A stretch of DNA of 64,000 bases from an uncultured Gammaproteobacteria bacterium (GTDB lineage Bacteria; Pseudomonadota; Gammaproteobacteria; HyVt-429). The notes below the pieces were generated by a model. The model ran no database searches. It was not told where the DNA came from and saw only the letters and a program-made list of their open reading frames with translations. The stretch spans positions 81,999 to 145,998 of the forward strand of contig CAMYOD010000077.1 in assembly GCA_947259975.1 (NCBI GenBank), in the 5' to 3' direction. A program made the position numbers and the translations under genes. The stretch's first letter is position 1; every line of letters begins with the position of its first letter. Of this stretch, positions 2,517 through 53,201 are shown one piece after another.

Positions 2517-2522
2517 ACATTC

Positions 2523-4264: not shown

Positions 4265-4283
4265 AGTTCGGGACCAAGTTATT

Positions 4284-11780: not shown

Positions 11781-13387
<1,607 letters not shown>

Positions 13388-13390
13388 CAA

Positions 13391-14548
13391 TTGATTCCCT
13401 ACGGAAAACAGACACTGTCGCAGGAGGACATCGATGCCGTCATCGATGTCCTTCGCTCGGATTACCTGACCCAGGGGCCGGCTGTACCGGCCTTTGAAAA
13501 TGCACTATGCGACCGCGTTCAGGCGGGTCATTGCGTTGCGGCGAACAGTGCAACGTCCGCGTTGCACCTGGCCTGCCGTGCGCTCGGGCTCGGGCCGGGC
13601 GACTGGTTATGGACGTCTCCGATTACGTTTGTCGCCTCCGCCAATTGCGCATTGTATTGTGGCGCGGGCGTCGACTTTGTCGATATCGACGAAGACACAT
13701 GGAATATGTCGCCGGCCGCGCTTGAGGATAAGCTGTTACGTGCCGAAAGTGAGGGACGTCTACCCAAGATAGTCGTGCCTGTCCATCTCTGTGGACAGCC
13801 CTGCGATATGGAGGAAATACATGCACTTGGTCGGCGCTTCGGATTCAGGATTATTGAAGACGCATCTCACGCAACTGGCGCGCAATATCGCGATTTGCCG
13901 GTGGGTGCATGTGAACATTCAGATATCACCATCTTCAGTTTTCATCCGGTAAAAATCGTCACCACGGGGGAGGGCGGCGCCGCTCTGACAAACGACGAGA
14001 GGCTCGCGCAAAAAATGCGACAGCTGCGGAGTCACGGTGTGACGCGCGACCCGCAGGAAATGACGCAATCGCCCGATGGACCCTGGTACTACCAGCAAAT
14101 TGATCTTGGTTATAACTATCGCCTGAGCGACATCCATGCAGCACTGGGTATTGCTCAGTTGCGCCGACTGACAGAATTTGTCGCAACCCGACGTCGGATC
14201 GCCAGCCGCTATGACGATGCATTCGTCGATGCGCCGCTGACTTTGCAGCGTCACCGTCGGGATTCGCAGTCAAGCTTTCACTTGTATGTGATACGTCTGG
14301 ATATTGATCGAATAGCCGCTTCGCGATCCGAGGTCTTCAGCGCGCTGCTTGACCGGGGCATAGGCGTGAATGTGCACTATATTCCAGTACATCTTCAGCC
14401 ATACTACCGTGACCGGGGATTTCGGCCCGGAAGCTATCCGAATGCAGAAAGATATTATTCGGAGGCGATAAGTCTGCCGCTCTTTCCATCGCTTGACCAA
14501 GATCGCCAGGGCCATATTATCGATTCGGTATTGCGCATTGCGCAATAG
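13391..14548 (+). CDS. pseC: UDP-4-keto-6-deoxy-N-acetyl-L-altrosamine transaminase
   Basis: IPYGKQ..DIDAV, LTQGP, SFHPVK.TTGEGG, GYNYR and VHYIPVH motifs. TTG start. Confidence 0.93.
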   Translation: MIPYGKQTLSQEDIDAVIDVLRSDYLTQGPAVPAFENALCDRVQAGHCVAANSATSALHLACRALGLGPGDWLWTSPITFVASANCALYCGAGVDFVDIDEDTWNMSPAALEDKLLRAESEGRLPKIVVPVHLCGQPCDMEEIHALGRRFGFRIIEDASHATGAQYRDLPVGACEHSDITIFSFHPVKIVTTGEGGAALTNDERLAQKMRQLRSHGVTRDPQEMTQSPDGPWYYQQIDLGYNYRLSDIHAALGIAQLRRLTEFVATRRRIASRYDDAFVDAPLTLQRHRRDSQSSFHLYVIRLDIDRIAASRSEVFSALLDRGIGVNVHYIPVHLQPYYRDRGFRPGSYPNAERYYSEAISLPLFPSLDQDRQGHIIDSVLRIAQ

Positions 14549-14578
14549 TGTACGTCGCGACAGTCGGTCGACAGAAGA

Positions 14579-15283
14579 ATGAATATTGCTGTTATCCCGG
14601 CCCGAGGCGGAAGTAAGCGAATTCCAAACAAGAATATTCGTCCGTTCTGCGGCAAGCCGATTATTGCTTACTCGATCGAGTTGGCGGTGCAAAGCGGGTT
14701 GTTTGATCGTATTATCGTTTCAACGGACAGCGATAAAGTTGCCGGGGTCGCCGTACAACACGGCGCCGAGGTTCCCTTCAAGCGGCCAGAGACGCTTGCA
14801 GATGATTACACTGGAACTGGCGCAGTCGTCACTCACGCACTGCAGTGGTGTCGAGAGGAAGGGCTGGCGGTGGATTTTGCATGTTGTATCTATGCAACGG
14901 CGCCGCTGCTGCAGTTGCGATTCTTGCGCGAAGGGTGGGAGCGATTACGGAGTTCCGCCCAGGCCTATGCGTTCGCGGTAACGGCGTATGAGTTCCCTAT
15001 TCAGCGAAGCCTGCGCCTGGAGGGCGATGGCGTTGCGCCGATGTTTCCCGAGCATACCGAGACGCGATCACAGGATCTCGAGCCCGTCTATCACGATGCG
15101 GCGCAGTTTTATTGGGGACGTGCCGAGGCCTACCTGAAATCGATCCCGATGTATTCTCCCAGGTCGAGCCCGATCGTGATACCGAAACACCTGGTTCAGG
15201 ACATCGATCGCGAGGAGGACTGGATTCGTGCGGAACTCATGTACAGGGTTTCGCAAGAGAGGATTGGGCAGTCATGCGAGTAA
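14579..15283 (+). CDS. pseF: Pseudaminic acid cytidylyltransferase
   Basis: PARGGSKRIPNKNI, CCIYATAP, RSQDL...DAAQFYWG and QDID motifs. Confidence 0.93.
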   Translation: MNIAVIPARGGSKRIPNKNIRPFCGKPIIAYSIELAVQSGLFDRIIVSTDSDKVAGVAVQHGAEVPFKRPETLADDYTGTGAVVTHALQWCREEGLAVDFACCIYATAPLLQLRFLREGWERLRSSAQAYAFAVTAYEFPIQRSLRLEGDGVAPMFPEHTETRSQDLEPVYHDAAQFYWGRAEAYLKSIPMYSPRSSPIVIPKHLVQDIDREEDWIRAELMYRVSQERIGQSCE

Positions 15284-16800
15284 TGTTCCGGGCTGACGCG
15301 TCCGCGGCTCTTGGAATGGGCCATGTGATGCGTTGTTTGACGTTGGCTGAAGAGTTCGGTCGCGCGGACGCCGCGGTGGGGTTGATGGCTCGGCCGATGA
15401 ACGATCGCATACGCGCGATGGCGGAAATGCGCGGGACCCAGTTTCATGCGCTCACCTGGGAGGGAAGTAGCGATGAAAGCAGCGTCTCATCATACGACTG
15501 GGAAAGTGATTTGGCCGCGAGCGTTGCGATCCTGCGTGAGTGGCAGCCTGACTGGTTGGTTGTGGACCATTACGGCCTTGATGAACGCTGGGAGCGCGCA
15601 GTCCGGGCGGAAACGGGGAAATTGCTCGTCATCGACGATCTTGCCAATCGTGATCACGTTTGCGATGTGCTTCTCGATCAGACATACGGACGCCGGGAAT
15701 CCGACTATGCCAACCGGGTGCCCTCCGAATGCACTCCCCTGTTGGGGTCCCAATATGCCTTGCTGCGCCCGCAGTTCCGACAGCATCGAGTGGAGGCGAC
15801 AGTGCGGCGCGAGACCTGCGAACAGATCAATCGGGTTTTGATCACGATGGGCGGGATGGATAATGCCAATGTTACAGGTACCGTAGTTGACGTACTCAGT
15901 AATTTCGATTGGCCTGCACTGCCGAGTGTGGATGTGCTGTTGTCTGATGCCGCGCCCCACAAGAGTGCCGTGCAACAACAGGCGAATGCGTCGCCTCTGA
16001 ATGTCACCGTTCATGCGGGCGTCGATGATGTGGCCGGGCTGATCCTGGGCGCTGATCTCGCGATCGGAGCGGGCGGTACGACGACCTGGGAGCGCTGCTG
16101 CCTGGGTTTGCCATCCATCCTTACCGCTGTCGCCGAGAATCAGCGGACAGTGGTCGATATCGTCGACCGCGCCGGTGCGGCGATCGTAATCGAATGGCCG
16201 GAAAGCTATGAGCAGGCGGTGGGCGCCGCAATTGGGCGAGTGCTGGGCGATTGGCGTTTTTATCATTCTCTTTCGCGGCGATCATCGTCTATCTGTGACG
16301 GTCTCGGTTGTGCTCGAGTGATGGCGGCGCTGGGTGAGTCCACCGTGCTTGACGCGCCATTGGCTCTGAGGCCGGCGCAGACCGCGGATTGTGATTTATT
16401 ATTTCACTGGCAGGTACAGCCGGGGGTCCGGGCACACTCGCGTAATCCGGAGGTTCCTTCCTATCGGGAGCACACAGCATGGTTTGATCGCGTTTTCGCA
16501 GACCCCGGCAGGCATATCTTCATTGCTGAAACAGGGGGTGTTCCCGTGGGCATGTTGCGCCTTGATCAGGACAATGCCGAAATGAACAGGGCCGAGATAT
16601 CAATCCTGGTCGATCCCGCACTGCACGGCAGGAAAATCGGTCAACGGGCAATATCCGCTATACAAGAACTATTTCCAAACCTGCAATTGATTGCCGAGGT
16701 CGCGACCGAAAACGTGGCGTCGAACAGGCTTTTTCGATCCTGTGGCTTTGAGGGACCGGTTGAGGGCTTCTATCGCTGTGCCCCGCTCTCGGAAATGTAG
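15274..16800 (+). CDS. pseG: PseG hydrolase fused to a C-terminal PseH-like GNAT acetyltransferase
   Basis: FRADAS..GMGHVMRC, VVDHY, IDDLANR, GGMD and GAGGTTTWERCCLGLP. The C-terminus LRPA...EHTAWF...GMLRLD...NVASNRLF..CGF is GNAT-like. Start is ATG 15274. Confidence 0.9.
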   Translation: MRVMFRADASAALGMGHVMRCLTLAEEFGRADAAVGLMARPMNDRIRAMAEMRGTQFHALTWEGSSDESSVSSYDWESDLAASVAILREWQPDWLVVDHYGLDERWERAVRAETGKLLVIDDLANRDHVCDVLLDQTYGRRESDYANRVPSECTPLLGSQYALLRPQFRQHRVEATVRRETCEQINRVLITMGGMDNANVTGTVVDVLSNFDWPALPSVDVLLSDAAPHKSAVQQQANASPLNVTVHAGVDDVAGLILGADLAIGAGGTTTWERCCLGLPSILTAVAENQRTVVDIVDRAGAAIVIEWPESYEQAVGAAIGRVLGDWRFYHSLSRRSSSICDGLGCARVMAALGESTVLDAPLALRPAQTADCDLLFHWQVQPGVRAHSRNPEVPSYREHTAWFDRVFADPGRHIFIAETGGVPVGMLRLDQDNAEMNRAEISILVDPALHGRKIGQRAISAIQELFPNLQLIAEVATENVASNRLFRSCGFEGPVEGFYRCAPLSEM

Positions 16801-16809
16801 CGGACCATA

Positions 16810-17862
16810 ATGATGCAAATCGAAGCGCGAAAAATCGGGCGCCAGTATCCGCCATATATCATTGCGGAGTTGTCCGCGAATCATAATGGCAGTCTGCAAA
16901 CCGCTATCGAGACGATCGTTGAAGCAAAAGCGGCCGGAGCCGACGCGGTAAAGCTGCAGACCTATACACCCGACACAATGACGATAGACTGTGATTCCCA
17001 GGATTTTCAAATAGATGGGGGCCTGTGGGATGGTTACAGCCTCCACCAGCTTTACCAGGAGGCACATACACCGTTCGAGTGGCATAAAGATCTGTTCGCA
17101 AAAGCTCGGGAAATTAATATTACTATATTCAGTTCGCCCTTTGACGAGTCCGCTGTCGATCTGCTTGAGGATCTTGGCGCTCCAGCCTACAAGATCGCGT
17201 CGTTCGAAGCCGTCGACTTGCCTCTTATCCGATATGTTGCACGAACCGGAAAGCCGATGATTATTTCTACCGGTATGGCATTGGAGGCTGAAATCAATGA
17301 TGCAGTAGTAGCCGCACGAGAGGCGGGATGCACGCAACTAGCGTTATTGCATTGCGTTAGCAGCTACCCGGCGCCGATAGATGAATCGAATCTACGAACC
17401 ATACCCGAGTTGGAACGAAGGTATGGAGTTGTTGCCGGATTATCGGACCATTCGCTTGGGTCGACGGTAGCAATCGCGGCGACGGCTCTTGGTGCCAGTG
17501 TCATAGAAAAGCATTTTACCCTGTCGCGTGCCGAGCCCGGCCCGGATTCGGCGTTTTCTATGGAGCCACCGGAATTCAGGAGTCTTTGCGACCAGGCAAG
17601 GCAGGCATGGGCCGCAATCGGACAGGTTGCGTATGGGCCAACCGCAGCCGAGGAGAGCAATAAACGTTTTAGACGGTCTCTCTACGTGGTGCAACATGTA
17701 GCAGCGGGCGAGCGAGTCACGACACAAAACGTGCGACGCATCAGGCCGGGTTTCGGGTTGGCGCCGCGTCATTACGACGAGGTGCTGGGTATGCAGTTCA
17801 GACAAGATGTTGCGCGGGGAACCGCACTCACGTGGGATCTGCTCAAAAAAGGCGATGCGTAA
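16810..17862 (+). CDS. pseI: Pseudaminic acid synthase
   Basis: IAELSANHNG, KLQTY, KIASFE, STGMA, GLSDH, EKHFTL and a C-terminal SAF domain (RRSLY..IRPGFG). Confidence 0.95.
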   Translation: MMQIEARKIGRQYPPYIIAELSANHNGSLQTAIETIVEAKAAGADAVKLQTYTPDTMTIDCDSQDFQIDGGLWDGYSLHQLYQEAHTPFEWHKDLFAKAREINITIFSSPFDESAVDLLEDLGAPAYKIASFEAVDLPLIRYVARTGKPMIISTGMALEAEINDAVVAAREAGCTQLALLHCVSSYPAPIDESNLRTIPELERRYGVVAGLSDHSLGSTVAIAATALGASVIEKHFTLSRAEPGPDSAFSMEPPEFRSLCDQARQAWAAIGQVAYGPTAAEESNKRFRRSLYVVQHVAAGERVTTQNVRRIRPGFGLAPRHYDEVLGMQFRQDVARGTALTWDLLKKGDA

Positions 17863-17913
17863 ACAAGCGTATTACCAGGTTGTTAGACAAGATACTTAGC
17901 GAAGGTGGTACCA

Positions 17914-18798
17914 ATGGATGAAAAAAAACCTGTTGATGTTCATTACGATTCGGTTGCCGAAAACTATCACGAGCAATACGACCGAGAAAATCTTTATGAC
18001 CTAAAGAAACCCTACCCGGCAAACTATTTCCGCATGCAGTATATGCTGAATTCGTTTGCCGAGACGGGCGCGCAACGGGTTATCGAGGTCGGCGTCGGCG
18101 AGGGAACGCCGTTGGCAAACCTAGCTACAATGGGCGCGGATTGCTGGGGGTTCGACATTTCGGAAAACATGGTCGCGCGCGCCAAAGAGACATTCAAAGA
18201 GCGTGGTCTTGATGATTCACATATCTCATGGGGCGATATAACGGACGTCAACACCTATATGCATATGCTGAGAGGGGGTCGATTTGACGGCGCCATGGCC
18301 ATGGGAGTGATGCCGCATGTCCGGCACGATGATCAGACCCTCCAGAATATCAAGCGCTTGGTCAAGGAGGACGGGCGAGTTTTTATTGAATTTCGCAATA
18401 AGCTTTTCTCACTGTTCACGTTTAACCGGTACACCTTCGAGTTCATCATGGACGACCTTTTATCAGAGGTGTCGCAAGAGCTTAAGGCAAGCGTGGGCAA
18501 AGCGCTGGAGGGTATATTGAGGATGGATCTGCCGCCGGTACGCCGGGATACAGAGGCGGCGGGTTATGATGAAATATTGTCGCGCTTTCACAATCCGCTC
18601 GAAATCGAAGAGTTGTTCAGACGCAACGGCTATGACGATATTCAGTTTCATTGGTACCATTATCACGCGGCACCACCCCTCGCGGGGATGGAGGTCCCCG
18701 AGCTGTTTCGCGCCGATTCCATAAATCTGGAATTTGAACCATCCGGCTGGAAGGGACTGTTTCTTTGCAGTGCGTTTGTAGTTGAGGCGACCGCGTGA
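17914..18798 (+). CDS. Class I SAM-dependent methyltransferase
   Basis: IEVGVGEG motif I, GFDISENMV, GDI and FDG..AMGVMPHV. Confidence 0.85.
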   Translation: MDEKKPVDVHYDSVAENYHEQYDRENLYDLKKPYPANYFRMQYMLNSFAETGAQRVIEVGVGEGTPLANLATMGADCWGFDISENMVARAKETFKERGLDDSHISWGDITDVNTYMHMLRGGRFDGAMAMGVMPHVRHDDQTLQNIKRLVKEDGRVFIEFRNKLFSLFTFNRYTFEFIMDDLLSEVSQELKASVGKALEGILRMDLPPVRRDTEAAGYDEILSRFHNPLEIEELFRRNGYDDIQFHWYHYHAAPPLAGMEVPELFRADSINLEFEPSGWKGLFLCSAFVVEATA

Positions 18799-20096
18799 CG
18801 GCGGAGGAATTCGTAAACGCCGCGAAGTCCGAAATGCTGGAGCTCGGCAAGGAGCTCTTTCCGATCTGCCGCAGTATTACTGGCGACGGGTTTCGTGAAT
18901 CGCTCGCTATTGTCGCGCGGCATATGCCGCTGCGTACGACGGAAGTTGCTTCCGGCACCCGGGTCTTCGACTGGACCGTACCCCAGGAATGGAATATCCG
19001 GGACGCTTGGATCAAGGACCCGGACGGGCGCAAGATCATTGATTTCAAGGAAAATAATCTTCATGTGGTGTCCTACTCCGAGCCCTTTCGCGGGTTTCTC
19101 GACAGGGAATCACTGAATGAGCACTTGTTCAGCCTCGAGGATTTGCCGGATGCAATCCCTTATGTAACGTCGTATTACAAGCGCCGGTGGGGGTTCTGTA
19201 CGACCCATCGTCAGCGCATGCAGCTTACCGAGGGCGACTATGAGGTCTATATCGACTCGGAACTCGCCGACGGTGGGTTGACCTATGGCGAGGCGGTGCT
19301 TGACGGTAAGTCGGATAAGGTTGTCCTGATCTCCACCTATCTCTGCCATCCGTCGATGGCCAATAATGAGTTGTCGGGACCGATCGTGAGTAGTTTCCTG
19401 TACAAGTATTTGCAGGCACGATCAGATCGCCGATATACCTACCACTTTGTCGTCGTTCCAGAGACCATTGGCTCGATCACCTTTATAAGTCGCAACCTTG
19501 ATTACCTGAAAAACAAGGTTATCTGCGGTTTCAACTTAAGTTGTATCGGGGACGAACGGGCCTACTCGATGGTAGCGAGCCCGTCGCAAGACACACTGGC
19601 AGATAAAGTCGCTCATGCAGTACTGAGCCGACGAGAAAATTTTGTCCACTATTCGTTCCTTGATCGCGGCAGCGACGAGCGGCAGTATTGCGCACCGCGC
19701 GTGAAACTTCCGTTGGTGACCCTTTGCCGTTCGAAATTCGGGGAGTATGACGAATACCATACTTCGCTCGATAATTTTGATTTGGTGACCGAGAATGGAC
19801 TGGGCGGGGGATTGGATGCGGCAATCGAATGCATCGAATTGCTTGAAAACAATGGATGCGTTGGTACGACTGTAAACTGTGAACCGCAGATGGGGAAACG
19901 CGGGCTTTACCCTACGACCTCAACGCGCAACGCGCGCGGTGACGAGACCAAGCTATGGATGGATATTTTGGCCCATGCTGACGGCAAGCGCGATCTGGCG
20001 GAACTGAGCACACTTCTGGCACGCCGTCCACGGGAGGTTATCGACGCCGTGAAACTGCTGGAAGAACATGGGCTGCTGGACGTAGTGCAAGCTTGA
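18795..20096 (+). CDS. DUF4910/DUF2172 M28 peptidase-like protein with C-terminal winged helix
   Basis: LFPICRSITGDG, VFDWTVPQEW, NNLHVV.YS, AIPYVTSYY, CHPSMANNELSGP, PETIGS, GSDERQYC, YHTSLD and EPQMGKRGLYP. Confidence 0.9.
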   Translation: MTAEEFVNAAKSEMLELGKELFPICRSITGDGFRESLAIVARHMPLRTTEVASGTRVFDWTVPQEWNIRDAWIKDPDGRKIIDFKENNLHVVSYSEPFRGFLDRESLNEHLFSLEDLPDAIPYVTSYYKRRWGFCTTHRQRMQLTEGDYEVYIDSELADGGLTYGEAVLDGKSDKVVLISTYLCHPSMANNELSGPIVSSFLYKYLQARSDRRYTYHFVVVPETIGSITFISRNLDYLKNKVICGFNLSCIGDERAYSMVASPSQDTLADKVAHAVLSRRENFVHYSFLDRGSDERQYCAPRVKLPLVTLCRSKFGEYDEYHTSLDNFDLVTENGLGGGLDAAIECIELLENNGCVGTTVNCEPQMGKRGLYPTTSTRNARGDETKLWMDILAHADGKRDLAELSTLLARRPREVIDAVKLLEEHGLLDVVQA

Positions 20097-20100
20097 AGTC

Positions 20101-22059
20101 ATGCCGTTGACCGTTGTTATCTCGGAGTTGGGCAGCTTGACGATGCTTCTAGGCCTATATCATCGTTGCCTCGGTCGTCCGGTATATTTCTACCAACCTT
20201 TCTCGGAGGCTTTTGCCGGGCGTTGGCGGCGCGTACTCAATTTTGTCGGATTCACGCGGATCGATTTTCAAAGCGCAGCGCGTGTCGACACCAACTATAT
20301 ATTCGGTGACCGCTACGATGTGGTCGGGCCAATCGTAGCGCGATTCCTGCCACCGGTGGTGTACACAGTAGCAGACGGTTTACTCGCCGGCATTGCTAAT
20401 CATGGCGCCAAGCTCAGGACGCTGGTGCGCGCGCATATTGACTCCGCATGTGCAGCAGCGGCGGAGATTGCGACATGGTGCGCAGGCCGGGAGCGGCGCG
20501 GTGAGCTGCTGATTATAGGGCCGTTAGGCCTATGGCCGCGCCGCTACCTGGAAGCCGCGGTGTCCGATCTGCGCGTCGGCCGGCTCGCGCCATTACTGTA
20601 CGGCCTCGCGGTGAGCAACAAGCTTTTGGTCCGATTGTGGCGCCGAAGATCGCGACTAAAGAAGCGTGTTGATGCCGCGCAGGAGACGTGCGACGTGCGC
20701 CTGCCGGGCGACGTTACCGGCCAAACGAGCTACGAGCAATCGGTGTTATTCTTCCCGCACCAGACGATCAGGTATGGAAATCTGTTCCTAAAGGATCATT
20801 TCTACAATTCTGACAGGAACTCGCCATTTCATTCGAGCAAGATCCTGCACGTTGAGTTAGGGGCGCTGCCGGCGGGCACCGTAACAGAGGATTTGTGCGA
20901 GATCTACGAGAGGCACGACATCAGGTATTGTCGTCTCAACGCGGATGTGAGTCTGCCCAGCGTGTCGACCGTGCATGAGTTTGTGCGCCATTGCTGGCGG
21001 CGGGGCGGATTCACCTTTATCTTGCGCAACCGCCAAGTCCTGATGGCGATATTGCGGAGCTGGTCCAGGTTTCGGTCATTCTGTACTGCATTGAAGCCGT
21101 TCAACAAGGCAAGGATTGCATTAGTCGGTTACGAGATGTTGTTTCCCAAGGAGCTTTCTCTTGCGCTCGAAGCACGTGGCATCAGAACCGTTGCCACGCA
21201 GGAGCGCTTTTTGGCTTCAACCTTTTATCGAAACTGGAATTACATCCTCGATACCTATCTGGTAGCGAGTCGGCGCGTATGCGAGGAAATTGACGCGGAT
21301 GAGTCTAAGTTGGTCAAGAACTGCATTCCCGTTGGGCTCGTTCGCGCTGATCTGATTCTGCAATTACCGGGCGTTGAAGCACCCGCGACCGACGATGAGG
21401 GAACGCCGGCGTTCGAGCATCTCGTGGTTGCCTACGATTTCCCGTCTCTGGATGATCGTTTCGCGAACATGCGCCGGCCGGTGGCGAACTGGGCGTCGAA
21501 TCGGCAATTCTATGAGGATATTTTGCGACTGGCGCGCGAATTCCCGCACGCGCGATTCGTCGTTCGCAGCAGGCAATTGAATTGGCTTCGGCTAGCCTAT
21601 TTCCAGAACGTGATAAATGCCCTCGGGCGCCAGGACAACGTAGTGATCAGTGAGGACTTCGCACGCTATGCAGTTCAGTACCGGTTGGGTGCGAGTGCCG
21701 ATCTGGTGATTGCAAAACATTCATCGATCGCCGAGGAGCTTATCGCCGCCGGCAAGCCCGTGATTCTGCATGACTACATCTGCAACGCGAGCACGACATT
21801 CAGTCAGGCCTATGCCTACGAGGGCGTGGCAGTGTTCGCCAGAAGCTACAACGAGCTAGCGAAAATGACGCATGCCGCACTGGAAAACGGAGACTTTCTC
21901 GCGCCGGGCGAAACGACGCGCCTGCGAGACGCTGTTAACAACGGACTTGCGGATGGAAAGGTTGGTGCACGGATTCAACAGGCGCTTTCGCGCATGCATG
22001 ATGAACAGCCGGTGGACATGAATTCAGGCGCATCAGAGCCTAGAAAAGCGATCGCCTAG
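20101..22059 (+). CDS. Hypothetical 652-aa protein, candidate ulosonate glycosyltransferase
   Basis: Long ORF. The C-terminal half is GT-B-like (TVATQER, VGLVRAD, ADLVIAKHSSIAEELIAAGKPVILHD). Confidence 0.5.
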   Translation: MPLTVVISELGSLTMLLGLYHRCLGRPVYFYQPFSEAFAGRWRRVLNFVGFTRIDFQSAARVDTNYIFGDRYDVVGPIVARFLPPVVYTVADGLLAGIANHGAKLRTLVRAHIDSACAAAAEIATWCAGRERRGELLIIGPLGLWPRRYLEAAVSDLRVGRLAPLLYGLAVSNKLLVRLWRRRSRLKKRVDAAQETCDVRLPGDVTGQTSYEQSVLFFPHQTIRYGNLFLKDHFYNSDRNSPFHSSKILHVELGALPAGTVTEDLCEIYERHDIRYCRLNADVSLPSVSTVHEFVRHCWRRGGFTFILRNRQVLMAILRSWSRFRSFCTALKPFNKARIALVGYEMLFPKELSLALEARGIRTVATQERFLASTFYRNWNYILDTYLVASRRVCEEIDADESKLVKNCIPVGLVRADLILQLPGVEAPATDDEGTPAFEHLVVAYDFPSLDDRFANMRRPVANWASNRQFYEDILRLAREFPHARFVVRSRQLNWLRLAYFQNVINALGRQDNVVISEDFARYAVQYRLGASADLVIAKHSSIAEELIAAGKPVILHDYICNASTTFSQAYAYEGVAVFARSYNELAKMTHAALENGDFLAPGETTRLRDAVNNGLADGKVGARIQQALSRMHDEQPVDMNSGASEPRKAIA

Positions 22060-22120: not shown

Positions 22121-23002
22121 ATGTTAAATCAAGCAAATGCGGTGGTGAATGTCGGCGGCGGTGATGTGCACGAGGTCAAAATCGGTAAGGATCAGCCGCT
22201 CGCTGTTTTGGCGGGACCTTGTGCCATTGAGAGCGAGACGCACGCGATGACCATGGCGGAAGGCATCCGTAAAATTGCCGACCGAGTGGGTGTCCCGCTG
22301 ATTTACAAGTCATGCTTCGATAAGGATTGCCGGTCATCACCGGACTCCTATCACGGTTGCGGCATCGATAGCGGTCTGAAGATTCTGGCGAAGATTCGGG
22401 CTGAGTTTGGTATTCCGGTAGTCACAGACGTCAGCAACGTCGAGTGGGTTGCGGAAACTGCTGAGGTGGCGGATATGCTGCAGATCCCGGCTTATCTTTG
22501 CCGGCAAACCCATCTTCTACGCGCCTGCGCCGCAACAAAGAAACCCTTGCACTTGAAAAAGGGTCAGTTTATGAATCCTCGTAATATGAAGAACTCACTG
22601 GCCAAAATCTATCGTGAGGAAAACTTTCAGGTGGTGTTGACCGACCGCGGTACATTCTTCGGTTATGACGATCTGGTTAACGACTTTCGCTCGTTGCAGA
22701 TCATGAAAGAGTTTGGCACCCCTGTGTGTTACGATGCGACCCATTCGATTCAACAGCCAACCGGGCACGGCAGTGTGTCGCAAGGGCTGCGGGAATTCAT
22801 TCCCGGGCTCGTCCGTGCCGCCTGTGCAATGAACGTCGACGCACTGTTTATGGAGGTTCACGATAATCCGGACCAGGCGTTAAGCGACCCCGCCACACAA
22901 CTCGATATCCAGTTTCTGGAGGCCATATTGCGTCAGTCCAAGGAAGTTAGTGACGTATCCCGGGCGGTCATACAACAGTATCCGACGGATGGGATAATCT
23001 GA
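22121..23002 (+). CDS. kdsA: KDO8P synthase family protein, metal-dependent type, atypical substrate loop
   Basis: AGPCAIES, FDKDCRSS (canonical FDKANRSS), QIPAYLCRQT, KKGQF, RG..FGY, DATHS and FMEVHDNP..ALSD. Confidence 0.85.
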   Translation: MLNQANAVVNVGGGDVHEVKIGKDQPLAVLAGPCAIESETHAMTMAEGIRKIADRVGVPLIYKSCFDKDCRSSPDSYHGCGIDSGLKILAKIRAEFGIPVVTDVSNVEWVAETAEVADMLQIPAYLCRQTHLLRACAATKKPLHLKKGQFMNPRNMKNSLAKIYREENFQVVLTDRGTFFGYDDLVNDFRSLQIMKEFGTPVCYDATHSIQQPTGHGSVSQGLREFIPGLVRAACAMNVDALFMEVHDNPDQALSDPATQLDIQFLEAILRQSKEVSDVSRAVIQQYPTDGII

Positions 23003-23038: not shown

Positions 23039-23737
23039 ATGACTGTAGCGGTCCTGATTCCGGCAAAGGGTAAAAGTAAACGCATTCCGCAAAAGAACCT
23101 CCAGAAAATAGGAGATGAAACGCTCGCCGAGCGTTGTGTTCGTAAGATGCTGGAGTGCAAGAATATCGATCGACTGATTCTGGATACTGACTCGGACGAG
23201 ATTATCGAGCTCGTTGATGGCTATCGGCAACAGGACGAGCGTCTTGTGATACGGGAGCGCTCCACGGAATTGATTGGAGATGACGTAGGCACGCCGGAAC
23301 TCTGCGTTAATCTGTTGAATCAGGAGCCCAATATTGATTATCTCGGCGTCATGCACGTGACCGCACCCTATTTAAGCAGTGCGAGCATCGATAAGTGCGT
23401 GGAGGTTTTTGTTACCTGTAATGCAGCGTATGACAGTCTGTTTACCGTCGAAGTATTGCATGACTATATCTGGAAGGATCAGCCGCTGAACTTTAACGTC
23501 GATTGTCGCACAAGTACTGACCAGGTCGACGTTTACTATAAATTGACTGGCGGATTCTTCATTGCACCAAGAAAATACATTCTCGAGCATAAGACGTTCA
23601 TTGGTCGCAATCCGATCCTCTATCCGGTGTCTGTTCTAGAGGGCCTGGATATCAATTATCCCAATGAACTTGAGTTGGCCCGGGTGATCCATGCCGGTCT
23701 CGACGCCCTGGGCCACGACGAGGAGCATCTGAAATGA
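23039..23737 (+). CDS. NeuA-type CMP-ulosonate cytidylyltransferase
   Basis: LIPAKGKSKRIPQKN, DTDS, HVTAPY and DINYPNE motifs. Confidence 0.85.
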   Translation: MTVAVLIPAKGKSKRIPQKNLQKIGDETLAERCVRKMLECKNIDRLILDTDSDEIIELVDGYRQQDERLVIRERSTELIGDDVGTPELCVNLLNQEPNIDYLGVMHVTAPYLSSASIDKCVEVFVTCNAAYDSLFTVEVLHDYIWKDQPLNFNVDCRTSTDQVDVYYKLTGGFFIAPRKYILEHKTFIGRNPILYPVSVLEGLDINYPNELELARVIHAGLDALGHDEEHLK

Positions 23738-24405
23738 GTGCGGAGGGTTTATCGCGCCTGACATCTGCTGTCATCTATGACGTCATGACTTTTGATTTGG
23801 CGTACGACCGTCAGTTCGCTCTCAAAAACGAGATTCGTCTGGCTACGGGAACGAAGGTAGTAGGGCCCGCTTTCACGGTGGCGGGTCAATTCACACCCAA
23901 TCGATTATCCAAATACGAGGAACGCGCACGGGTTATCGATATGCTGGAGCATATGTCCGCGGGCGTGATTGAGGTTCTACAGCCAAATTACGCCGGCCCC
24001 CTGGGATCGTGGGGCGACTTTACCGCAACATTGGTGAGAAAGTTTGGATGTACAGGTGCTGTCGTGGACGGCTTTACCCGGGATATCAAAGGTCTGAATG
24101 AAATGCAATTCAGTCTATTCTGTAAGGGAACGAGCCTTGTCAATGGATTTGGCAGTGGTTGGCAAATCAGCGACTTCCAGTGCCCGGTAGCGATGCCGGG
24201 CCCGTTGGAAGTACCGGTTACCGTGAATCCAGGCGATTATGTCGTCGGCGACGATGACGGAGTCGTCATCGTACCGCGGGAAATGATTGATGACGTTGTT
24301 GAGCATGCCATCCGTCGACTAGATCGGGAAGAGGATCTTAAAGCCCAGTTGGCACAGGACGGTCTCACCCCCGCCGATCTGAAAAAAACAATATTTGAGT
24401 GGTAG
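23734..24405 (+). CDS. RraA / HMG(CHA)-aldolase family protein
   Basis: VGPAFTV, WGD, GAVVDGFTRD and VNPGDYVVGDDDGVVIVP motifs. ATGA overlap. Confidence 0.88.
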   Translation: MSAEGLSRLTSAVIYDVMTFDLAYDRQFALKNEIRLATGTKVVGPAFTVAGQFTPNRLSKYEERARVIDMLEHMSAGVIEVLQPNYAGPLGSWGDFTATLVRKFGCTGAVVDGFTRDIKGLNEMQFSLFCKGTSLVNGFGSGWQISDFQCPVAMPGPLEVPVTVNPGDYVVGDDDGVVIVPREMIDDVVEHAIRRLDREEDLKAQLAQDGLTPADLKKTIFEW

Positions 24406-24493: not shown

Positions 24494-26227
24494 GTGAGCA
24501 CCCTGGATAGTCATCAAGCAGGGACTATCGATCTGGGTTTTCGGGCCGAATTCGATGTGGGTGTCGGCCGCATGTATGACCAGATTAGCCTTGAGCTTAG
24601 GCAACCATTTTGCAGGTTCGTCGAACGGTTGTCGTCCTCATTTTGTATGCAGGTAGATTGGTGGGTGGGGCTACCGTCCAGCCGCGATCAATATAGCAGC
24701 CAATTGTTCCACGTCTGTACTGCATTGGTGCTTTTGGATCACTTGATTAACAGCGGTCACCGAATCGATAAAATCATCGTCGATGATGCAGCAATGCAGC
24801 AATGTGTGCTCGCGCTACTGCGCCGACAAAATGCGCACATACAAGTCTCTCGTCGGCAGACACCGACACAGCGTTGGGTTCGGTATATGCGTGAGATTCT
24901 TGCACCATTCCGCGCCATCGCACGCATCTGGCTCGAAACATTCATAATTCGCCAAGGCAGAGTTGACCATGGTATCGCCGATGTCGCTGATCTGATACTC
25001 GTGGACACGTTTGTTATACCGCCCTCCGATTTGAACCGTGACCGATACTACCCGGGTCTGTGGGAGGGACTGCGTGAAGAGCAGCGCGTGCGTTTACGCT
25101 TCGTGCCTCAATTTCTCATGTATCCGATCAGCAAGTTGCGGCGGATCGTGCGAGAGGCCCGTCGCGCGCCCGAAAAGTATCTCATCAAGGAAGACCTTAT
25201 CACCGTCACCGATCTACTTTGGGTCGCGGCGCACTGGTGGCGTATTCGCCGCTGGAAAATCGACAACGTCCGCTTTCACGACAATGATCTCTCACCGGTT
25301 GTAAGGCGCGAATTGTACTCGGGCATCGGCTTTCGGTCCGCGTTGCGCGGCCTATTGAATTTTCGATTTGTGATGCGTGCTCGCCAAGCGGGCTTGCAAA
25401 TCGCCCGAGCAATCGACTGGTTTGAAAATCAGACAGTCGATCGTGGCTGGAATCTGGGGCTTCACACTTACTATCCGAAGGTGCCGCGCATCGGGTACCT
25501 GGGATTCTCCGCAACCTCTCAGGCCGCGCGTCCGGCACAATATGAGGCGGCCGCGGGCGTAGTGCCAGATGAGTTCGCTGTCATGGGTAATGGACATATT
25601 GCCGATATGAGCGAGTTTCACGCTGAGGTGCGGACGCAGATTGCGCCTGCGTTTCGGTATGGCTGGTTGTGGCAGGAAGATGGCGAGATGCCCACGGCTG
25701 ACGCGGGTGTCGCAGATACGATTCTGGTTATGTTGCCGATTGAAAAGGGGGCGGCTTCGTTCTGCCTGGACCTCGTGTGCCAGCTTGCAGCGAGGCGGCA
25801 CCATTTTTGCTTTGTGGTCAAGGCGCATCCGATGCTACCGATTGCGGACATTGAGTTACCGACGAGTACATTACCGGCCGCAGTCATGGAGACGAACGAG
25901 GCGATTCCTGAACAGCTCAAGCGGGCGGGATGTGCAGTTTCCGGGGGCAGTACCACCGCCGGACTCGAAGCCCTGGCCTCCGCGGTACCGGTAGTTTTCG
26001 TGGCGTCGCCTGGACATCGGTCCGAGCTGCCGATACCAACGGCACTGCCACATGCGAATTATCGGGTGGCGCAGGATATCGACGCGTTCGAGCAAGCGCT
26101 CGACGACCTGCGCGAACGACGGATACAGCAGGCCGATCGATTACGTTCGGACGCTGCTGCCGTCAAGCGGGATTTCTTTGCACCATTGTCTGACGCCACA
26201 CTCGGCGATCTTGTTGGTGTGCGTTAG
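24494..26227 (+). CDS. Hypothetical 577-aa protein, candidate ulosonate glycosyltransferase
   Basis: Long ORF with WFENQ..DRG, APAFRY, VKAHPM and STTAGLEALASAVPV in a GT-B-like C-terminus. Confidence 0.5.
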   Translation: MSTLDSHQAGTIDLGFRAEFDVGVGRMYDQISLELRQPFCRFVERLSSSFCMQVDWWVGLPSSRDQYSSQLFHVCTALVLLDHLINSGHRIDKIIVDDAAMQQCVLALLRRQNAHIQVSRRQTPTQRWVRYMREILAPFRAIARIWLETFIIRQGRVDHGIADVADLILVDTFVIPPSDLNRDRYYPGLWEGLREEQRVRLRFVPQFLMYPISKLRRIVREARRAPEKYLIKEDLITVTDLLWVAAHWWRIRRWKIDNVRFHDNDLSPVVRRELYSGIGFRSALRGLLNFRFVMRARQAGLQIARAIDWFENQTVDRGWNLGLHTYYPKVPRIGYLGFSATSQAARPAQYEAAAGVVPDEFAVMGNGHIADMSEFHAEVRTQIAPAFRYGWLWQEDGEMPTADAGVADTILVMLPIEKGAASFCLDLVCQLAARRHHFCFVVKAHPMLPIADIELPTSTLPAAVMETNEAIPEQLKRAGCAVSGGSTTAGLEALASAVPVVFVASPGHRSELPIPTALPHANYRVAQDIDAFEQALDDLRERRIQQADRLRSDAAAVKRDFFAPLSDATLGDLVGVR

Positions 26228-26290: not shown

Positions 26291-27403
26291 ATGTATTTCA
26301 ATGATGTATACAAGCACCGCAAGGTCCTTGTATTTGGTCACACCGGCTTCAAGGGTTCGTGGTTGGTCGCGTGGTTGCGTGAGCTGGGTGCTGATGTCGT
26401 CGGTGTATCGAATTGCGTTCCTACACAACCTGCCCATATTGAGGTGACAGGGCTTGATCGCGCCGTGAAGGGACACACACTCGATATTCGTGACTTGGCG
26501 GCAGTGTCGCGCGTGATCGAAATGGAACAACCGGATTGGGTATTCCATCTTGCTGCCCAGTCATTGGTCAAGTATTCGTACGATGAACCGATCGAGACTT
26601 TTACGACGAATGCGATCGGTACGGCTCATATTCTGGAGGCCTTGCGACGCCAAGGTCGTCCATGTATTGGCATTATTATTACGAGCGACAAGTGTTACGA
26701 CAACGTCGAGTGGATATGGGGATACCGGGAGACAGATCGCCTGGGTGGCAAGGATCCGTATAGTGCGTCGAAGGGTGCCGCAGAATTGGTGATACGATCC
26801 TACGTGGAGTCATACTTCTCAGCCAAAAACTGCCCGATTCGTCTCGGTATCGGACGCGCAGGAAACGTCATCGGTGGCGGTGATTGGGCCGCTGATCGAG
26901 TGGTTCCGGACTGCATAAGGGCGTGGTCAGAGAGTGATAACGTATCGATTCGGAACCCAAATGCAACACGCCCCTGGCAGCATGTGCTCGAACCCTTGAG
27001 TGGATACCTTGCGCTGGGCGCGCAGCTTCATGCGGATGCGACGCTGCAAGGCGAAGCCTTCAACTTCGGACCATCTGCGGACATGAGCCACTCCGTGCGC
27101 GATTTGGTCGAACAGATGTCGCGTGATTGGCCGGGTGTGACTTGGCAAGACACGTCAGACCCACATCATCCACATACGGAAGCGGGTCTACTGAAGTTGA
27201 ATTGCGATAAGGCCCTCGCAAAACTGGGTTGGCGCGGCGTGCTCACATTTCCTGAGACTGTTTCCATGACCACGAGCTGGTATCGAGATTATTACTCGAA
27301 AGGCGCAGGGAAAATATTGGCGCTGACCACAGATCAAATCCACCATTTCTGTGATCTGGCGTCGGCGCGCGGTATCGCCTGGGCAACTCGGCTCGATGGT
27401 TAA
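26291..27403 (+). CDS. rfbG: CDP-glucose 4,6-dehydratase
   Basis: GHTGFKGSWL, HLAAQSLV, TSDKCY, DPYSASK, RAGNVIGGGDW, RPWQHVLEPL and NFGP motifs. Confidence 0.95.
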   Translation: MYFNDVYKHRKVLVFGHTGFKGSWLVAWLRELGADVVGVSNCVPTQPAHIEVTGLDRAVKGHTLDIRDLAAVSRVIEMEQPDWVFHLAAQSLVKYSYDEPIETFTTNAIGTAHILEALRRQGRPCIGIIITSDKCYDNVEWIWGYRETDRLGGKDPYSASKGAAELVIRSYVESYFSAKNCPIRLGIGRAGNVIGGGDWAADRVVPDCIRAWSESDNVSIRNPNATRPWQHVLEPLSGYLALGAQLHADATLQGEAFNFGPSADMSHSVRDLVEQMSRDWPGVTWQDTSDPHHPHTEAGLLKLNCDKALAKLGWRGVLTFPETVSMTTSWYRDYYSKGAGKILALTTDQIHHFCDLASARGIAWATRLDG

Positions 27404-30599: not shown

Positions 30600-31631
30600 A
30601 TGATCGCCGCGCATGATATGGCGTTTTACTTGTTTCTCGTGCAGGGCGTAGCCATGGTGGTAACCGTTTATTCGCCACAATCACCCGCGTTATTACGCCG
30701 CGCGCTGCTGGCGCAAGTCGCCTTGATCGCTGTGTTTTGGTTTGTCTGGAGTGGTTACTCAAGGGATGCGTGGCGATATCTTTCCGCGTTTGACGGTAAT
30801 CCTCTCAGTTTCGAGGAAGAACATCTCTTTTGGTTGGCGGGCCATGGCCTGAGTCGTGTATTTCCGGACCCATGGTCATTGAAGATCCTAACCGTCGTGG
30901 GCGCGCTGATCTTCTGTGCTGCATTGGTGACATTCTTTCGCGGCAAGTCGCACGAGTACCCGATCATTGGTCTTTATGTCGCACTTCTGGTGCCGGGTTT
31001 TATTTTGTTGTTTGGAAACACCTTGCGACAGGGCATGGCCGCCGCAATGGTCCTCTTAGGGATGAACCTTTTATTTGCAAGTAGATATGCATTATTCGCG
31101 TTAAGCGTGATTGTGGCGTTCCTCGTTCATCAGACGGCGTTAATTCTCGCGGCGGCGATCCTGATGGGTAGGTATTTTACGGTGTGGGCGAAGTATCTTC
31201 TTCTATTGGCGCCCTTCGTTAGTTATCTCGCCGCATATGGGTTGAGTTTGGCGGGGGAAGATCTGGGCGCCATCATTCGATACTCAGATCGAACCGAAGG
31301 CGTTTTCCATTTCGAAAAATTTCTGGTCAGCTATTTGCTTGCATGGCTGGTGGTTATCATGGGGCAAAAAGGAGAGGGACCGTGGGCATGGCTTTATGCG
31401 GCCTATGTATATATGGTTGCGATCAGCGCCTGTTTTCTAAAGTACGAAGTGCCGTTTGAGCGTTTACTTCTATACTCGGACATGTTGTTGCCCTTCGTCA
31501 TACCAGCGCTGGCCCTACCCTGGCTGAGCTCCAGAAGAGCAAAAGGTATTGGGTTCGCGGCCGGAATGCTGGCCGGGCTTGTATTGTGGACTCACCCATC
31601 TGTTGTCACCGCGCTCGGTTATGCGGTCTAG
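30600..31631 (+). CDS. EpsG-family polytopic protein, probable Wzy polymerase
   Basis: About 10 hydrophobic segments with D..RY...F, NTLRQGMA, FLVH and ER patterns typical of EpsG. Confidence 0.7.
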   Translation: MIAAHDMAFYLFLVQGVAMVVTVYSPQSPALLRRALLAQVALIAVFWFVWSGYSRDAWRYLSAFDGNPLSFEEEHLFWLAGHGLSRVFPDPWSLKILTVVGALIFCAALVTFFRGKSHEYPIIGLYVALLVPGFILLFGNTLRQGMAAAMVLLGMNLLFASRYALFALSVIVAFLVHQTALILAAAILMGRYFTVWAKYLLLLAPFVSYLAAYGLSLAGEDLGAIIRYSDRTEGVFHFEKFLVSYLLAWLVVIMGQKGEGPWAWLYAAYVYMVAISACFLKYEVPFERLLLYSDMLLPFVIPALALPWLSSRRAKGIGFAAGMLAGLVLWTHPSVVTALGYAV

Positions 31632-34808: not shown

Positions 34809-35480
34809 ATGTCTATGAGTGAGTCCAATAAAGATTCGATTGATCGTCCCGCGGGTAGCAATACTGTTTGGCATCATGCATCGGTAACTCGCGAGCGGCG
34901 CGAGGCACTTAATGGGCATCGTGCTGCGGTGGTCTGGTTTACGGGACTTTCTGGATCAGGTAAGTCGACATTGGCGCACTCGGTCGAAGAGGAATTGCAT
35001 CGACTGGGTTGTCGAACGTATGTATTCGACGGTGACAATGTGCGTCATGGATTGTGCGGCGATCTTGCCTTCTCTGCAGCGGACCGTACGGAAAATATCC
35101 GTCGCATCGGGGAGATGGCCCGATTGTTCGTAGATGCGGGCGTAATCGGGCTGACCGCATTTATTTCTCCGTTTGGGGTTGATCGTCGCTTCGTCCGGGA
35201 TCTGGTCGGCGCGGACAGCTTTCTCGAGGTTTATTGCAAGTGCGCCATCGAGGTCTGCGAGGCGCGCGATGTGAAGGGGTTGTATAAACGGGCGCGCGCC
35301 GGGGAAATCAAGGAGTTCACGGGCATTTCTTCTCCCTACGAAGAACCTGAGCAGCCGGAGCTCGTGGTGGACACAGGCGCCGAATCCCTTGAGCGCTGTG
35401 TCGCCAAGGTTGTCGCGCTACTAATCGACCGTGGAATCGTGCAACGCGACAAGGTGATGGAAAAAGAAGGCAGCACGTAA
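34809..35480 (+). CDS. cysC: Adenylyl-sulfate kinase
   Basis: [37 protein letters not shown] and FTGISSPYE motifs. Confidence 0.96.
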
Positions 35481-37532: not shown

Positions 37533-38360
37533 GTGGGCTCTGATCAGATAGGATTGCACTTGCTCGTGTCCCCAATCAGCAGTTTCAGACGTAATCTGGC
37601 CTTGGTCGGGCAACTTACCAGGCGTGAGGTCCTGGGCCGTTATCGCGGCTCTTTCTTCGGGCTGGTGTGGTCTTTCTTCTATCCGCTGCTGATGCTGGCG
37701 GTATATACATTCGTGTTCAGCGTCATATTCAACGCGCGGTGGGGCGGTGCGACTGACGATCGCGCAGGATTTGCGATCGCTGTTTTTGCGGGCCTCATTA
37801 TTCATTCGCTGTTTTCCGAGTGCGCCATTCGGGCACCGACCCTGATTCTCGGCAACGTGAATTACGTCAAGAAAGTGGTTTTCCCGCTGGAAATTCTGCC
37901 GTGGGCGGTCATCGGCTCAGCCCTGTTCCATGCCGTGGTGAGCGCGATCGTGCTGCTGGCGTTTTTCTTGTACATAAACAGCTATCTGCATGTCACGTTC
38001 CTTTTGTTCCCTATCGTGATCATACCCTTGATCATCCTGATTGCCGGCGTGTCCTGGTTTCTGGCGGCGATTGGCGTGTATGTGCGTGATATCAATCAAA
38101 TCGTCGGTGTCTTGACAACCGTGCTGCTGTTTCTTAGCCCCATATTCTATCCGCAAAGCGCGTTACCGGAAGCATTTCAACCTTATCTGCTGTTCAATCC
38201 GCTGACTTTCATTATCGAGCAGGCGCGCAATGTGTTGTTGTGGGGTAAATGGCCGGATTGGGCCGGCCTCGCGATATATACCGTATTCAGTGTAATTTTT
38301 GCACAGCTTGGATTCCTGACGTTCCAGAAGCTCCGCAAGGGTTTTGCAGATGTCCTCTAG
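37533..38360 (+). CDS. wzm: O-antigen ABC transporter permease
   Basis: RYRGS.FG..W, NYVKKVVFP, RD, SPIFYP and NPL motifs. Start uncertain (37533-37566). Confidence 0.93.
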   Translation: MGSDQIGLHLLVSPISSFRRNLALVGQLTRREVLGRYRGSFFGLVWSFFYPLLMLAVYTFVFSVIFNARWGGATDDRAGFAIAVFAGLIIHSLFSECAIRAPTLILGNVNYVKKVVFPLEILPWAVIGSALFHAVVSAIVLLAFFLYINSYLHVTFLLFPIVIIPLIILIAGVSWFLAAIGVYVRDINQIVGVLTTVLLFLSPIFYPQSALPEAFQPYLLFNPLTFIIEQARNVLLWGKWPDWAGLAIYTVFSVIFAQLGFLTFQKLRKGFADVL

Positions 38361-39702: not shown

Positions 39703-39738
39703 GCCTGGGTCGCCTGTCAGGCGACATTCGTAGTCACG

Positions 39739-46842: not shown

Positions 46843-46856
46843 GCCCGGCGCAAGTT

Positions 46857-49382: not shown

Positions 49383-49408
49383 ACGGCGCACTCTCGTAAG
49401 TTGATGCA

Positions 49409-52189: not shown

Positions 52190-52253
52190 GATTCGCATGC
52201 GATGCCGGAGCGATCGAAAATCCCGAATTTAACGTGACTAAGGAGCTTAAACC

Positions 52254-53192: not shown

Positions 53193-53201
53193 CCTTATCT
53201 C

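Follow-up and report, generated by a model that had tools for sequence, protein, structure and literature searches.

The KdsA paralogue of the window

The stretch of DNA analysed here, called the window, comprises 64,000 nucleotides of contig CAMYOD010000077.1 (positions 81,999 to 145,998, forward strand) from the assembly GCA_947259975.1 of an uncultured gammaproteobacterium. It carries a gene for a protein of the KDO8P synthase family (KDO8P being the 8-phosphate of 3-deoxy-D-manno-octulosonate), which we term KdsA* and in which the motif KANRS of loop L2 is replaced by KDCRS. To our knowledge, KANRS is a universally ('absolutely') conserved signature of the KDO8P synthases and sets this family apart from the 3-deoxy-D-arabino-heptulosonate 7-phosphate (DAH7P) synthases. 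The gene and its motif are situated as follows:

22121..23002, forward strand: KdsA*, a KDO8P synthase family paralogue of the KDCRS clade, metal-dependent type, 293 amino acids, ATG start (profiles, alignment, model and trees)
22322..22336, forward strand: codons of K68-D69-C70-R71-S72, that is KDCRS in place of the KANRS of loop L2 (translation and alignment to 1fwn)

The start codon is preceded by GGGGA at a distance of 8-12 nt, and the translation includes YKSCFDKDCRSSPDSYHGCG, QIPAYLCRQTH, LHLKKGQF, YDATHS, FMEVHD, and ALSDP. Pfam DAHP_synth_1 matches the protein with an E-value of 1.1e-60. Both KDO8P synthase equivalog models of NCBIfam are passed, NF003543 with 339.2 bits (cut-off 242) and TIGR01362 at the borderline with 323.7 bits (cut-off 314). 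Identity as a type I-beta DAH7P synthase was considered as well. These enzymes belong to the same superfamily, share the phosphoenolpyruvate (PEP) and metal chemistry, and have a related SP.SF.G stretch after the motif. However, KdsA* reaches 133.1 bits on TIGR01361 (cut-off 267.75) and 139.2 bits on NF006421 (cut-off 335), its motif is two residues longer than their KPRT loop, and they have no extended L7 loop. This assignment was rejected.

For the mapping of residues KdsA* was aligned with HMMER to the KDO8P synthase of Aquifex aeolicus (1fwn), and signature positions are given in Aquifex numbering. Both proteins (1fwn/1fxq for the Aquifex enzyme) have the (beta/alpha)8 fold (TM 0.83-0.95), with 45-46% identity. 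The metal ligands are C34 (Aquifex C11), H208 (H185), E245 (E222), and D256 (D233). On the PEP side there are K63 (K41), K68 (K46), K146 (K124), and R176 (R154), and for the aldose phosphate the Arg-Ser pair and the trans-subunit Arg, namely R71 (R49), S72 (S50), and R128 (R106). We take these roles to be the ones described in the structural literature on the Aquifex and E. coli enzymes. All of these ligands are invariant in the 38 KDCRS rows of the family alignment and in the KANRS rows, and the length of loop L2 and the extended loop L7 are kept. The sequence-only reading had described a KdsA homologue with KDCRS at the KANRS site and with intact metal ligands and PEP-binding Lys and Arg residues. 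The open reading frame translation and the alignment to 1fwn confirmed the first point, and the HMMER alignment the second. According to one study, a Cys/Asn split separates metallo from non-metallo KDO8P synthases (PMC3052366); KdsA*, having the Cys, is of the metallo type.

An AlphaFold model of KdsA*, built with a 39-row alignment of the clade, is a confident TIM barrel (pLDDT 89.7, pTM 0.90). Its soft stretches are restricted to residues 71-80 in L2 and 211-220 in L7. In a Foldseek search the solved KDO8P synthases were the first matches (TM 0.85-0.97, root mean square deviation 1.4-1.8 A).

Compared with the Aquifex enzyme, KdsA* differs at C65 (S43), D69 (A47), C70 (N48), H78 (R56), S105 (H83), and Y125 (F103), and further at H131 (D109), H144 (N122), N155 (D133), F179 (T157), and T214 (G191). 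To find the changes that go with the motif, the family rows were split by motif, and the other columns were counted in 38 KDCRS and 99 KANRS rows. The A47 and N48 columns define the two groups, so that 99/99 is circular for them. The non-circular count is that of the 113 family rows outside the clade, in which the column of the KANRS Asn holds Asn 110 times and Cys not once. Ten positions besides the motif co-vary with KDCRS; seven of them read:

S43: C in 37/38 KDCRS rows; S in 99/99 KANRS rows (C in 0/99)
H83: S in 38/38 KDCRS rows; H in 97/99 KANRS rows (S in 1/99)
F103: Y in 38/38 KDCRS rows; F79, L10, Y6, M4 in KANRS rows
D133: N in 38/38 KDCRS rows; D60 in KANRS rows
T157: F in 38/38 KDCRS rows; S55, T18, F7 in KANRS rows
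G191: T in 38/38 KDCRS rows; G72 in KANRS rows (T in 0/99)
R56: H in 32/38 KDCRS rows; R93 in KANRS rows

W109, T113, and S159 are likewise fixed in the KDCRS clade and are rare or absent in the KANRS rows. N122H (25/38) and D109H (17/38) are not marks of the clade. Two further departures from the usual KdsA sequence had been pointed out in the sequence-only reading, PAYL for PAFL and HLKKGQ. The former is clade-wide, as the F103 row shows, whereas the latter does not hold as a clade mark, since its first position is H in 25, N in 10, and L in 3 of the 38 rows.

In a computational study of the Neisseria enzyme (PMC6650799), the residues named for the PEP side are Lys50, Lys55, Lys133, Arg163, and His197. 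A hydroxylated inhibitor interacts with Asn57 and Arg58, the inhibitor portion in the pocket for arabinose 5-phosphate (A5P) is touched by Pro110, Phe112, and Leu113, and a repulsion is reported for Asp90. By motif position, Asn57 and Arg58 would correspond to the Asn and Arg of KANRS, Pro110, Phe112, and Leu113 to the PAFL motif, and Asp90 to the Asp of TDxH. Judged by PMC6650799 and by what is known of the family, the changes in KdsA* thus appear to be confined to elements that shape the aldose site, namely L2, the end of beta3, PAFL, and L7; S43C, H83S, F103Y, and G191T are among the changes assigned to such elements.

Asp at the Ala position of the motif is also found in seven representatives outside the clade (KDNR in five, KDWR, and RDDR). 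The other signature residues are not shared by these seven, apart from one odd representative, which has KDWRS together with the counterparts of S105 and Y125. The rare variants of KANRS are scattered over the KdsA tree: KDNR (P0148, P0164, P0215, P0222, P0252), KDWRS (P0251), RDDRP (P0254), KGNR (P0162/P0204/L046), and KSNR (P0168/P0197). P0251, with S at H83 and Y at F103, is strongly divergent. The rare variants keep S43 and mostly H83 and would therefore not represent intermediates of the KDCRS signature.

Distribution of the KDCRS clade

In a search of 5.8 billion proteins all of the 120 best matches of KdsA* (55-80% identity) contained KDCRS, 118 of them in the context [FY]DKDCRS and two as [FY]NKDCRS. 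In an exhaustive search of a library of representatives at 50% identity, the clade is a single full-length representative (372.9 bits, 58% identity), after which the next match falls to 269.9 bits and 49% identity. With FastTree (152 rows) all 38 KDCRS sequences were found on one branch with a support of 99, and all 99 KANRS rows were on the other side. A quick IQ-TREE analysis used 83 rows, made up of 26 of the 38 with KDCRS, 38 drawn at random from the 99 with KANRS, the genome's own KdsA, 13 of the 14 other motif variants (rep_P0263 was left out), and six DAH7P synthases, the type I-beta rows forming the outgroup. It again placed the KDCRS rows together (26/26, SH-aLRT 100, stem 0.43). The suggestion that KDCRS might form a clade was thus borne out, and the KDCRS sequences do not fall among housekeeping KdsA proteins, being set apart in the library search and in both trees.

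Internal branches of the clade measured 0.02-0.26 in IQ-TREE compared with 0.3-0.9 for canonical rows. KdsA* of the window belongs to a subclade of five rows, apart from a subclade of 21 rows that includes every locus of known context. The position of the clade depended on the rooting: with one outgroup it was sister to all the rest, with six it was nested in the KdsA radiation. As the backbone is weak (support at most 91), we do not place the origin of the clade within this radiation.

The genome and metagenome scans contained no relative with more than 61% identity to KdsA*. At the protein level the relatives P0002-P0014, which belong to the window's own subclade, are 64-80% identical. Among the 50 best matching proteins of 514-2000 amino acids there was no fused form with KDCRS (47 had KANRS, and three were of canonical type without the motif region), and among the best 80 loci of viral contigs no relative exceeded 49% identity. 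No mention of the KDCRS motif as a variant of KDO8P synthase was found in the literature searched, and among the papers listed for octulosonic acids of other than manno configuration none was relevant.

The source genome (3.22 Mb, 92.8% complete) also has a canonical kdsA, situated between pyrG and eno on another contig, with KANRS, GPC, and PAFL and a TIGR01362 score of 408.7 bits. One kdsD (363.9 bits) and one kdsB (291.8 bits) are also located on contigs other than that of KdsA*. KdsA* is therefore a second copy, and it differs from canonical KdsA in its separate clade and in lying in a glycan island rather than in a pyrG-kdsA-eno arrangement. [quoted passage not shown] The variant was not found in the genomes of the 40 nearest relatives, where the best match was 49% identical and canonical, and no match at E <= 1e-90 came from a sample of 399 other genomes of the class or from three others of the order. 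The GC content is 53-57% in the island (about 70-150 kb of the contig) and 53.2% in the gene for KdsA*, compared with 60.0% in the genome and 61.8% in the canonical kdsA. Genome-wide, 2% of the 1-kb windows are below 52%. The low GC content and the absence from the sampled relatives fit a horizontal acquisition of KdsA* together with the glycan island.

Eleven KDCRS genomes including the source genome were compared, and copies were assigned by adjacency to a match of the CBS domain pair alone. Eight of them have a canonical copy too, which scores 347.4-408.7 bits on TIGR01362 compared with 309.8-329.1 bits for the KDCRS copies. Ten of the eleven KDCRS copies, at 315.8-329.1 bits, are above the cut-off of 314. 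In three of the eleven genomes no canonical KdsA was found; these are two actinobacterial metagenome-assembled genomes (MAGs; 1.2 and 1.3 Mb, G041 and G042) and a Balneolaceae MAG (locus L014, genome G407). A full-length KpsF/KdsD over the cut-off is encoded in six of the eleven, and one more (Pelagibacter, 176.9 bits) is below it. The genomes in which no full-length KdsD was found are the two actinobacterial MAGs, where the CBS pair alone matches, the Balneolaceae MAG, and Anianabacter salinae (locus L019, genome G045), which does have a canonical KdsA. The missing KdsA and KdsD in the Balneolaceae MAG and the missing KdsD in A. salinae could be due to incompleteness or to another isomerase.

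For the gene neighbourhood elsewhere, 67 related loci were available, ten from the genome scan (among the best 80) and 57 from the metagenome scan. The motif itself is visible in 58, and the others are incomplete genes with more than 50% identity. By record, the ten genome loci come from Balneolaceae, Leptospira, Alphaproteobacteria, Legionella, Caldithrix, Anianabacter salinae, Ca. Nanopelagicus, Actinomycetota, Pelagibacter, and Dinoroseobacter. Neighbours were called by Pfam in the ten genome loci and by tblastn in all 67, and as many loci are short, the counts are floors. Where 500 nt or more of downstream sequence was available (59 loci), KdsA* was directly followed by a gene for a CBS pair, most like the C-terminus of KdsD, in 56 cases. 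Within 9 kb of KdsA* we found a KdsB-like cytidylyltransferase (42/67), an uncharacterised 496-aa protein (26/67), an HpcH aldolase (24/67), two short-chain dehydrogenases/reductases (SDRs; 23/67 and 22/67), a HAD phosphatase (7/67), and a radical SAM enzyme (4/67). The minimal cassette consists of KdsA*, the CBS pair, the KdsB-like protein, and the 496-aa protein.

Some of these loci have further features. In the metagenome loci L147 and L148 a KDCRS-type gene has no CBS gene downstream, and the next four open reading frames of L148 have no Pfam family. NeuB-like genes are near KdsA* in L015, L131, and L143. In L015 (5866-7896) a class-III aminotransferase near the KdsA* cassette carries a fused CTP_transf_3 domain, and in L021 (2936-4914) the two are adjacent, with an aldo-keto reductase beside them. 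These genes of L015 and L021 may represent another CMP-linked pathway in the same islands.

Cassette of the window and possible role of KdsA*

The genes around KdsA* in the window are the following:

12392..17862, forward strand: complete pseudaminic-acid-type operon (profiles) with a PseB-like Polysacc_synt_2 protein, a PseC-like DegT aminotransferase, and a PseF-like cytidylyltransferase
same operon, forward strand: further a 562-aa protein with C-terminal GNAT and a NeuB/PseI-like protein with SAF domain (profiles)
17905-18798: methyltransferase
18795-20096: DUF4910 protein
20101..22059, forward strand: 652-aa protein without Pfam match (language-model neighbours)
23039..23737, forward strand: divergent cytidylyltransferase, CTP_transf_3 by Pfam, below every KdsB and PseF cut-off of NCBIfam
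23734..24405, forward strand: RraA-like class II aldolase/decarboxylase homologue, its start overlapping the cytidylyltransferase gene by 4 nt
24494..26227, forward strand: 577-aa protein without Pfam match, with a predicted GT-B glycosyltransferase-like fold (model)
26291-27403: CDP-glucose 4,6-dehydratase
downstream of 27403: GT4 and GT2 transferases, an EpsG-like protein, and further on Wzm/Wzt

The cytidylyltransferase scores 62.3 bits on CTP_transf_3 (cut-off 22.6), 51.9 bits on the PseF model (cut-off 205.7), and 24.7-41.8 bits on the KdsB models (cut-offs 155-281), which it matches at the N-terminus only. The RraA-like protein reaches 83.9 bits on PF03737 (cut-off 24.5) and 77.6 bits on the LigK/PcmE model TIGR02798 (cut-off 304.5). 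Among solved structures it is closest to 5x15 and to the HMG/CHA aldolase 3noj, and in the alignment with 5x15 its vvDGftRD is paired with vvDGriRD, of which we presume the Arg-Asp pair to be functional. The 577-aa protein has 54 bits on TIGR04326, below the cut-off, and five homologues in the search of 5.8 billion proteins. Its model (pLDDT 79.6) is an alpha/beta two-domain structure, for which all top Foldseek matches are GT-B glycosyltransferases with E-values of 3.5e-7 and weaker and TM 0.4-0.58. The language-model neighbours of the 577-aa and 652-aa proteins include clusters in which fewer than half of the members carry LIC12162, Capsule_synth, or Glyphos_transf; we treat this family link as a lead. 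The pseudaminic-acid-type operon is regarded as context of KdsA*, and a joint pathway is conceivable.

By tblastn, homologues of the RraA-like, 577-aa, and 652-aa genes were present in none of the 67 loci elsewhere. The window in turn has none of the CBS, HpcH, SDR pair, KdsB-like, or 496-aa genes of those loci. Because these three genes are confined to the window among the loci compared and a CBS gene is missing, we consider the window to hold a third type of cassette.

In our opinion KdsA* is probably an active, metal-dependent PEP condensing enzyme with a changed aldose phosphate specificity, which feeds a CMP-activated ulosonic acid other than Kdo into a surface glycan. The parts of this reading differ in strength. 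Catalytic activity is almost certain, and so is a role of KdsA* in a surface glycan rather than in the lipid A core; that the aldose phosphate is one other than A5P we regard as likely. A changed specificity is suggested because the KANRS Asn is invariantly lost and four or more other positions mapped to the pocket are replaced, because the minimal cassette has no supply gene, and because the variant occurs in two actinobacterial MAGs in which KdsD was not found. As the phosphate grip and the loop length are intact, a phosphorylated five-carbon aldose would be expected. Our best guess is ribose 5-phosphate in first place, as the ubiquitous pentose 5-phosphate, since the loop has the length of KANRS and not the shorter one of KPRS and since most cassettes are without a supply gene for a special sugar phosphate.

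On this reading KdsA* would condense PEP with a phosphorylated aldose, probably not A5P, to give a 2-keto-3-deoxy sugar acid in phosphorylated form, similar to Kdo. Once the phosphate is removed, the adjacent cytidylyltransferase, which we presume to activate the KdsA* product, would convert the acid to its CMP-sugar. The flanking GT-B-like proteins might transfer the CMP-activated sugar onto the surface glycan of the island. The RraA-like protein would act on the product in its form as a 4-hydroxy-2-oxo acid, a part which in the common cassettes may fall to the HpcH aldolase. That aldolases of two unrelated folds occur beside KdsA*, HpcH elsewhere and the RraA-like protein here, suggests a tailoring step on the open-chain product. 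We infer the order of the later steps and the part played by the RraA-like protein.

Alternatively, KdsA* could be an ordinary KDO8P synthase using A5P and PEP, a dedicated second copy which boosts CMP-Kdo for a Kdo-containing capsule or O-antigen, with KDCRS being a neutral or regulatory peculiarity of the lineage. We judge this to be rather unlikely, and nevertheless a number of points speak for it and weigh against a changed specificity. KdsA* is above the cut-offs of two KDO8P synthase equivalogs, as ten of the eleven KDCRS copies are for TIGR01362. The PEP, metal, and phosphate ligands are kept, and by its three aldose phosphate ligands and its loop length, which are those of an A5P-using enzyme, the protein would remain compatible with A5P. 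The partner in most cassettes is KdsB-like by similarity (42/67), and the CBS pair (56/59) most resembles the C-terminus of KdsD. A KdsD over the cut-off, present in the source genome and in at least five of the ten other KDCRS genomes, could supply A5P. Further points against our reading concern its evidence. The cassette of the window is unlike the other loci, and it is adjacency that links the later steps of the pathway to KdsA*. Asp at the Ala position, seen in seven representatives outside the clade, is by itself not diagnostic. The completeness of the actinobacterial and Balneolaceae MAGs is not stated, so that KdsD is to be called not found in them rather than absent. The functions ascribed to N48, H83, and S43 are presumed ones.

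The ordinary synthase is, on the other hand, difficult to reconcile with the uniform replacement of Asn by Cys in every member of the clade, compared with 0/113 in the other family rows, and with S43C, H83S, F103Y, and G191T coming along with it. Mutation of the KANRS Asn impairs the use of A5P. Moreover, the clade scores 310-329 bits on TIGR01362 whereas the canonical copies of the same genomes score 347-409 bits, and in the two actinobacterial MAGs the variant occurs with neither KdsD nor canonical KdsA found. Duplication of Kdo genes at such loci is known from group 2 capsules, in which KpsF and KpsU duplicate KdsD and KdsB, have canonical active sites, and make ordinary CMP-Kdo. KdsA* resembles them as an accessory Kdo-pathway copy in a surface polysaccharide locus beside a cytidylyltransferase and transferases. 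In contrast to them, KdsA* duplicates the KdsA step itself with a rebuilt aldose pocket, and there is no KpsF-type isomerase in the cassette; the CBS pair occurs elsewhere and is missing from the window.

A special case of the changed specificity is an aldehyde of different length or a modified one, such as erythrose 4-phosphate, a hexose 6-phosphate, or a deoxy or amino pentose phosphate, with the new Asp and the Tyr hydroxyl binding a group that A5P does not have. The acid of D69 and the hydroxyl of Y125 are indeed new at positions mapped to the pocket, Asn and His are lost, and SDRs, an aldolase, a radical SAM enzyme, or aminotransferases are near some cassettes. However, the minimal cassette has no gene for a special sugar phosphate, and the loop is as long as that with KANRS instead of being shortened like the KPRS loop of the DAH7P synthases; we consider this improbable, more so than the ordinary synthase. 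Least probable by far is that KdsA* is catalytically dead or has a regulatory or structural role. The broken canonical motif is the single observation in its favour, and it is opposed by the known catalytic and ligand-binding residues, invariant in 38/38 clade rows, by the tight conservation of the clade apparent from its short internal branches, and by the confident barrel model.

A more specific proposal can be made for the clade as a whole, which we put forward tentatively and hold for doubtful. The KDCRS proteins could be enzymes condensing PEP with ribose 5-phosphate or another ubiquitous pentose phosphate, a route that needs no isomerase and leads to an undescribed 2-keto-3-deoxy acid of eight carbons, and mobile cassettes would bring this acid to cell surfaces across phyla. 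If facial selectivity is kept, the acid would be the C5 epimer of Kdo, 3-deoxy-D-altro-octulosonate. The sugar would also be present on bacteria such as the freshwater Actinomycetota, for which no Kdo pathway was found in the MAGs, and the 4-hydroxy-2-oxo acid form would be tailored alternatively by the unrelated HpcH or RraA-like aldolases.

The tight and widely transferred clade, with one fixed motif replacement and the chemistry kept, looks like a natural experiment in the re-specification of a substrate. As ten of the eleven copies pass TIGR01362 and are annotated as KdsA, genome-based inferences on Kdo and lipopolysaccharide can be wrong, including those for the two actinobacterial MAGs. 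Should the product be a new ulosonic acid, the family of Kdo and the sialic acids would gain a surface sugar together with its activating and transferring enzymes. The cassette of L019 is present in a cultured isolate and is thus directly testable. New in this analysis are the distinct cassette of the window, the position-by-position signature, the clade statistics, and the GT-B model of the neighbour. The conservation of the cassette elsewhere and the occurrence of the variant where no Kdo pathway was found both hold on the loci examined.

Other glycan genes of the window

A further module resembling one for a sugar acid is encoded at 942-5480, with a TPP-dependent enzyme, a GFO/IDH/MocA oxidoreductase, a third CTP_transf_3 cytidylyltransferase, and a protein of the UDP-GlcNAc 2-epimerase family. 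Altogether three CMP-type cytidylyltransferases are encoded in the window.

The regions at 37533-42311 and 44257-57141 contain a Wzm/Wzt ABC exporter, whose Wzt has a C-terminal carbohydrate-binding domain, followed by a 633-aa protein with a methyltransferase domain and by very large multi-domain GT2 proteins (861, 841, 926, and 985 aa). These genes resemble an O-polysaccharide system of the ABC-transporter-dependent type, with a modifier of the chain end. The EpsG (Wzy-like) gene at 30600-31631 suggests a second system of Wzy type. A gene for adenosine 5'-phosphosulfate (APS) kinase, situated at 34809-35480 inside the glycan island, hints at a sulfated glycan.

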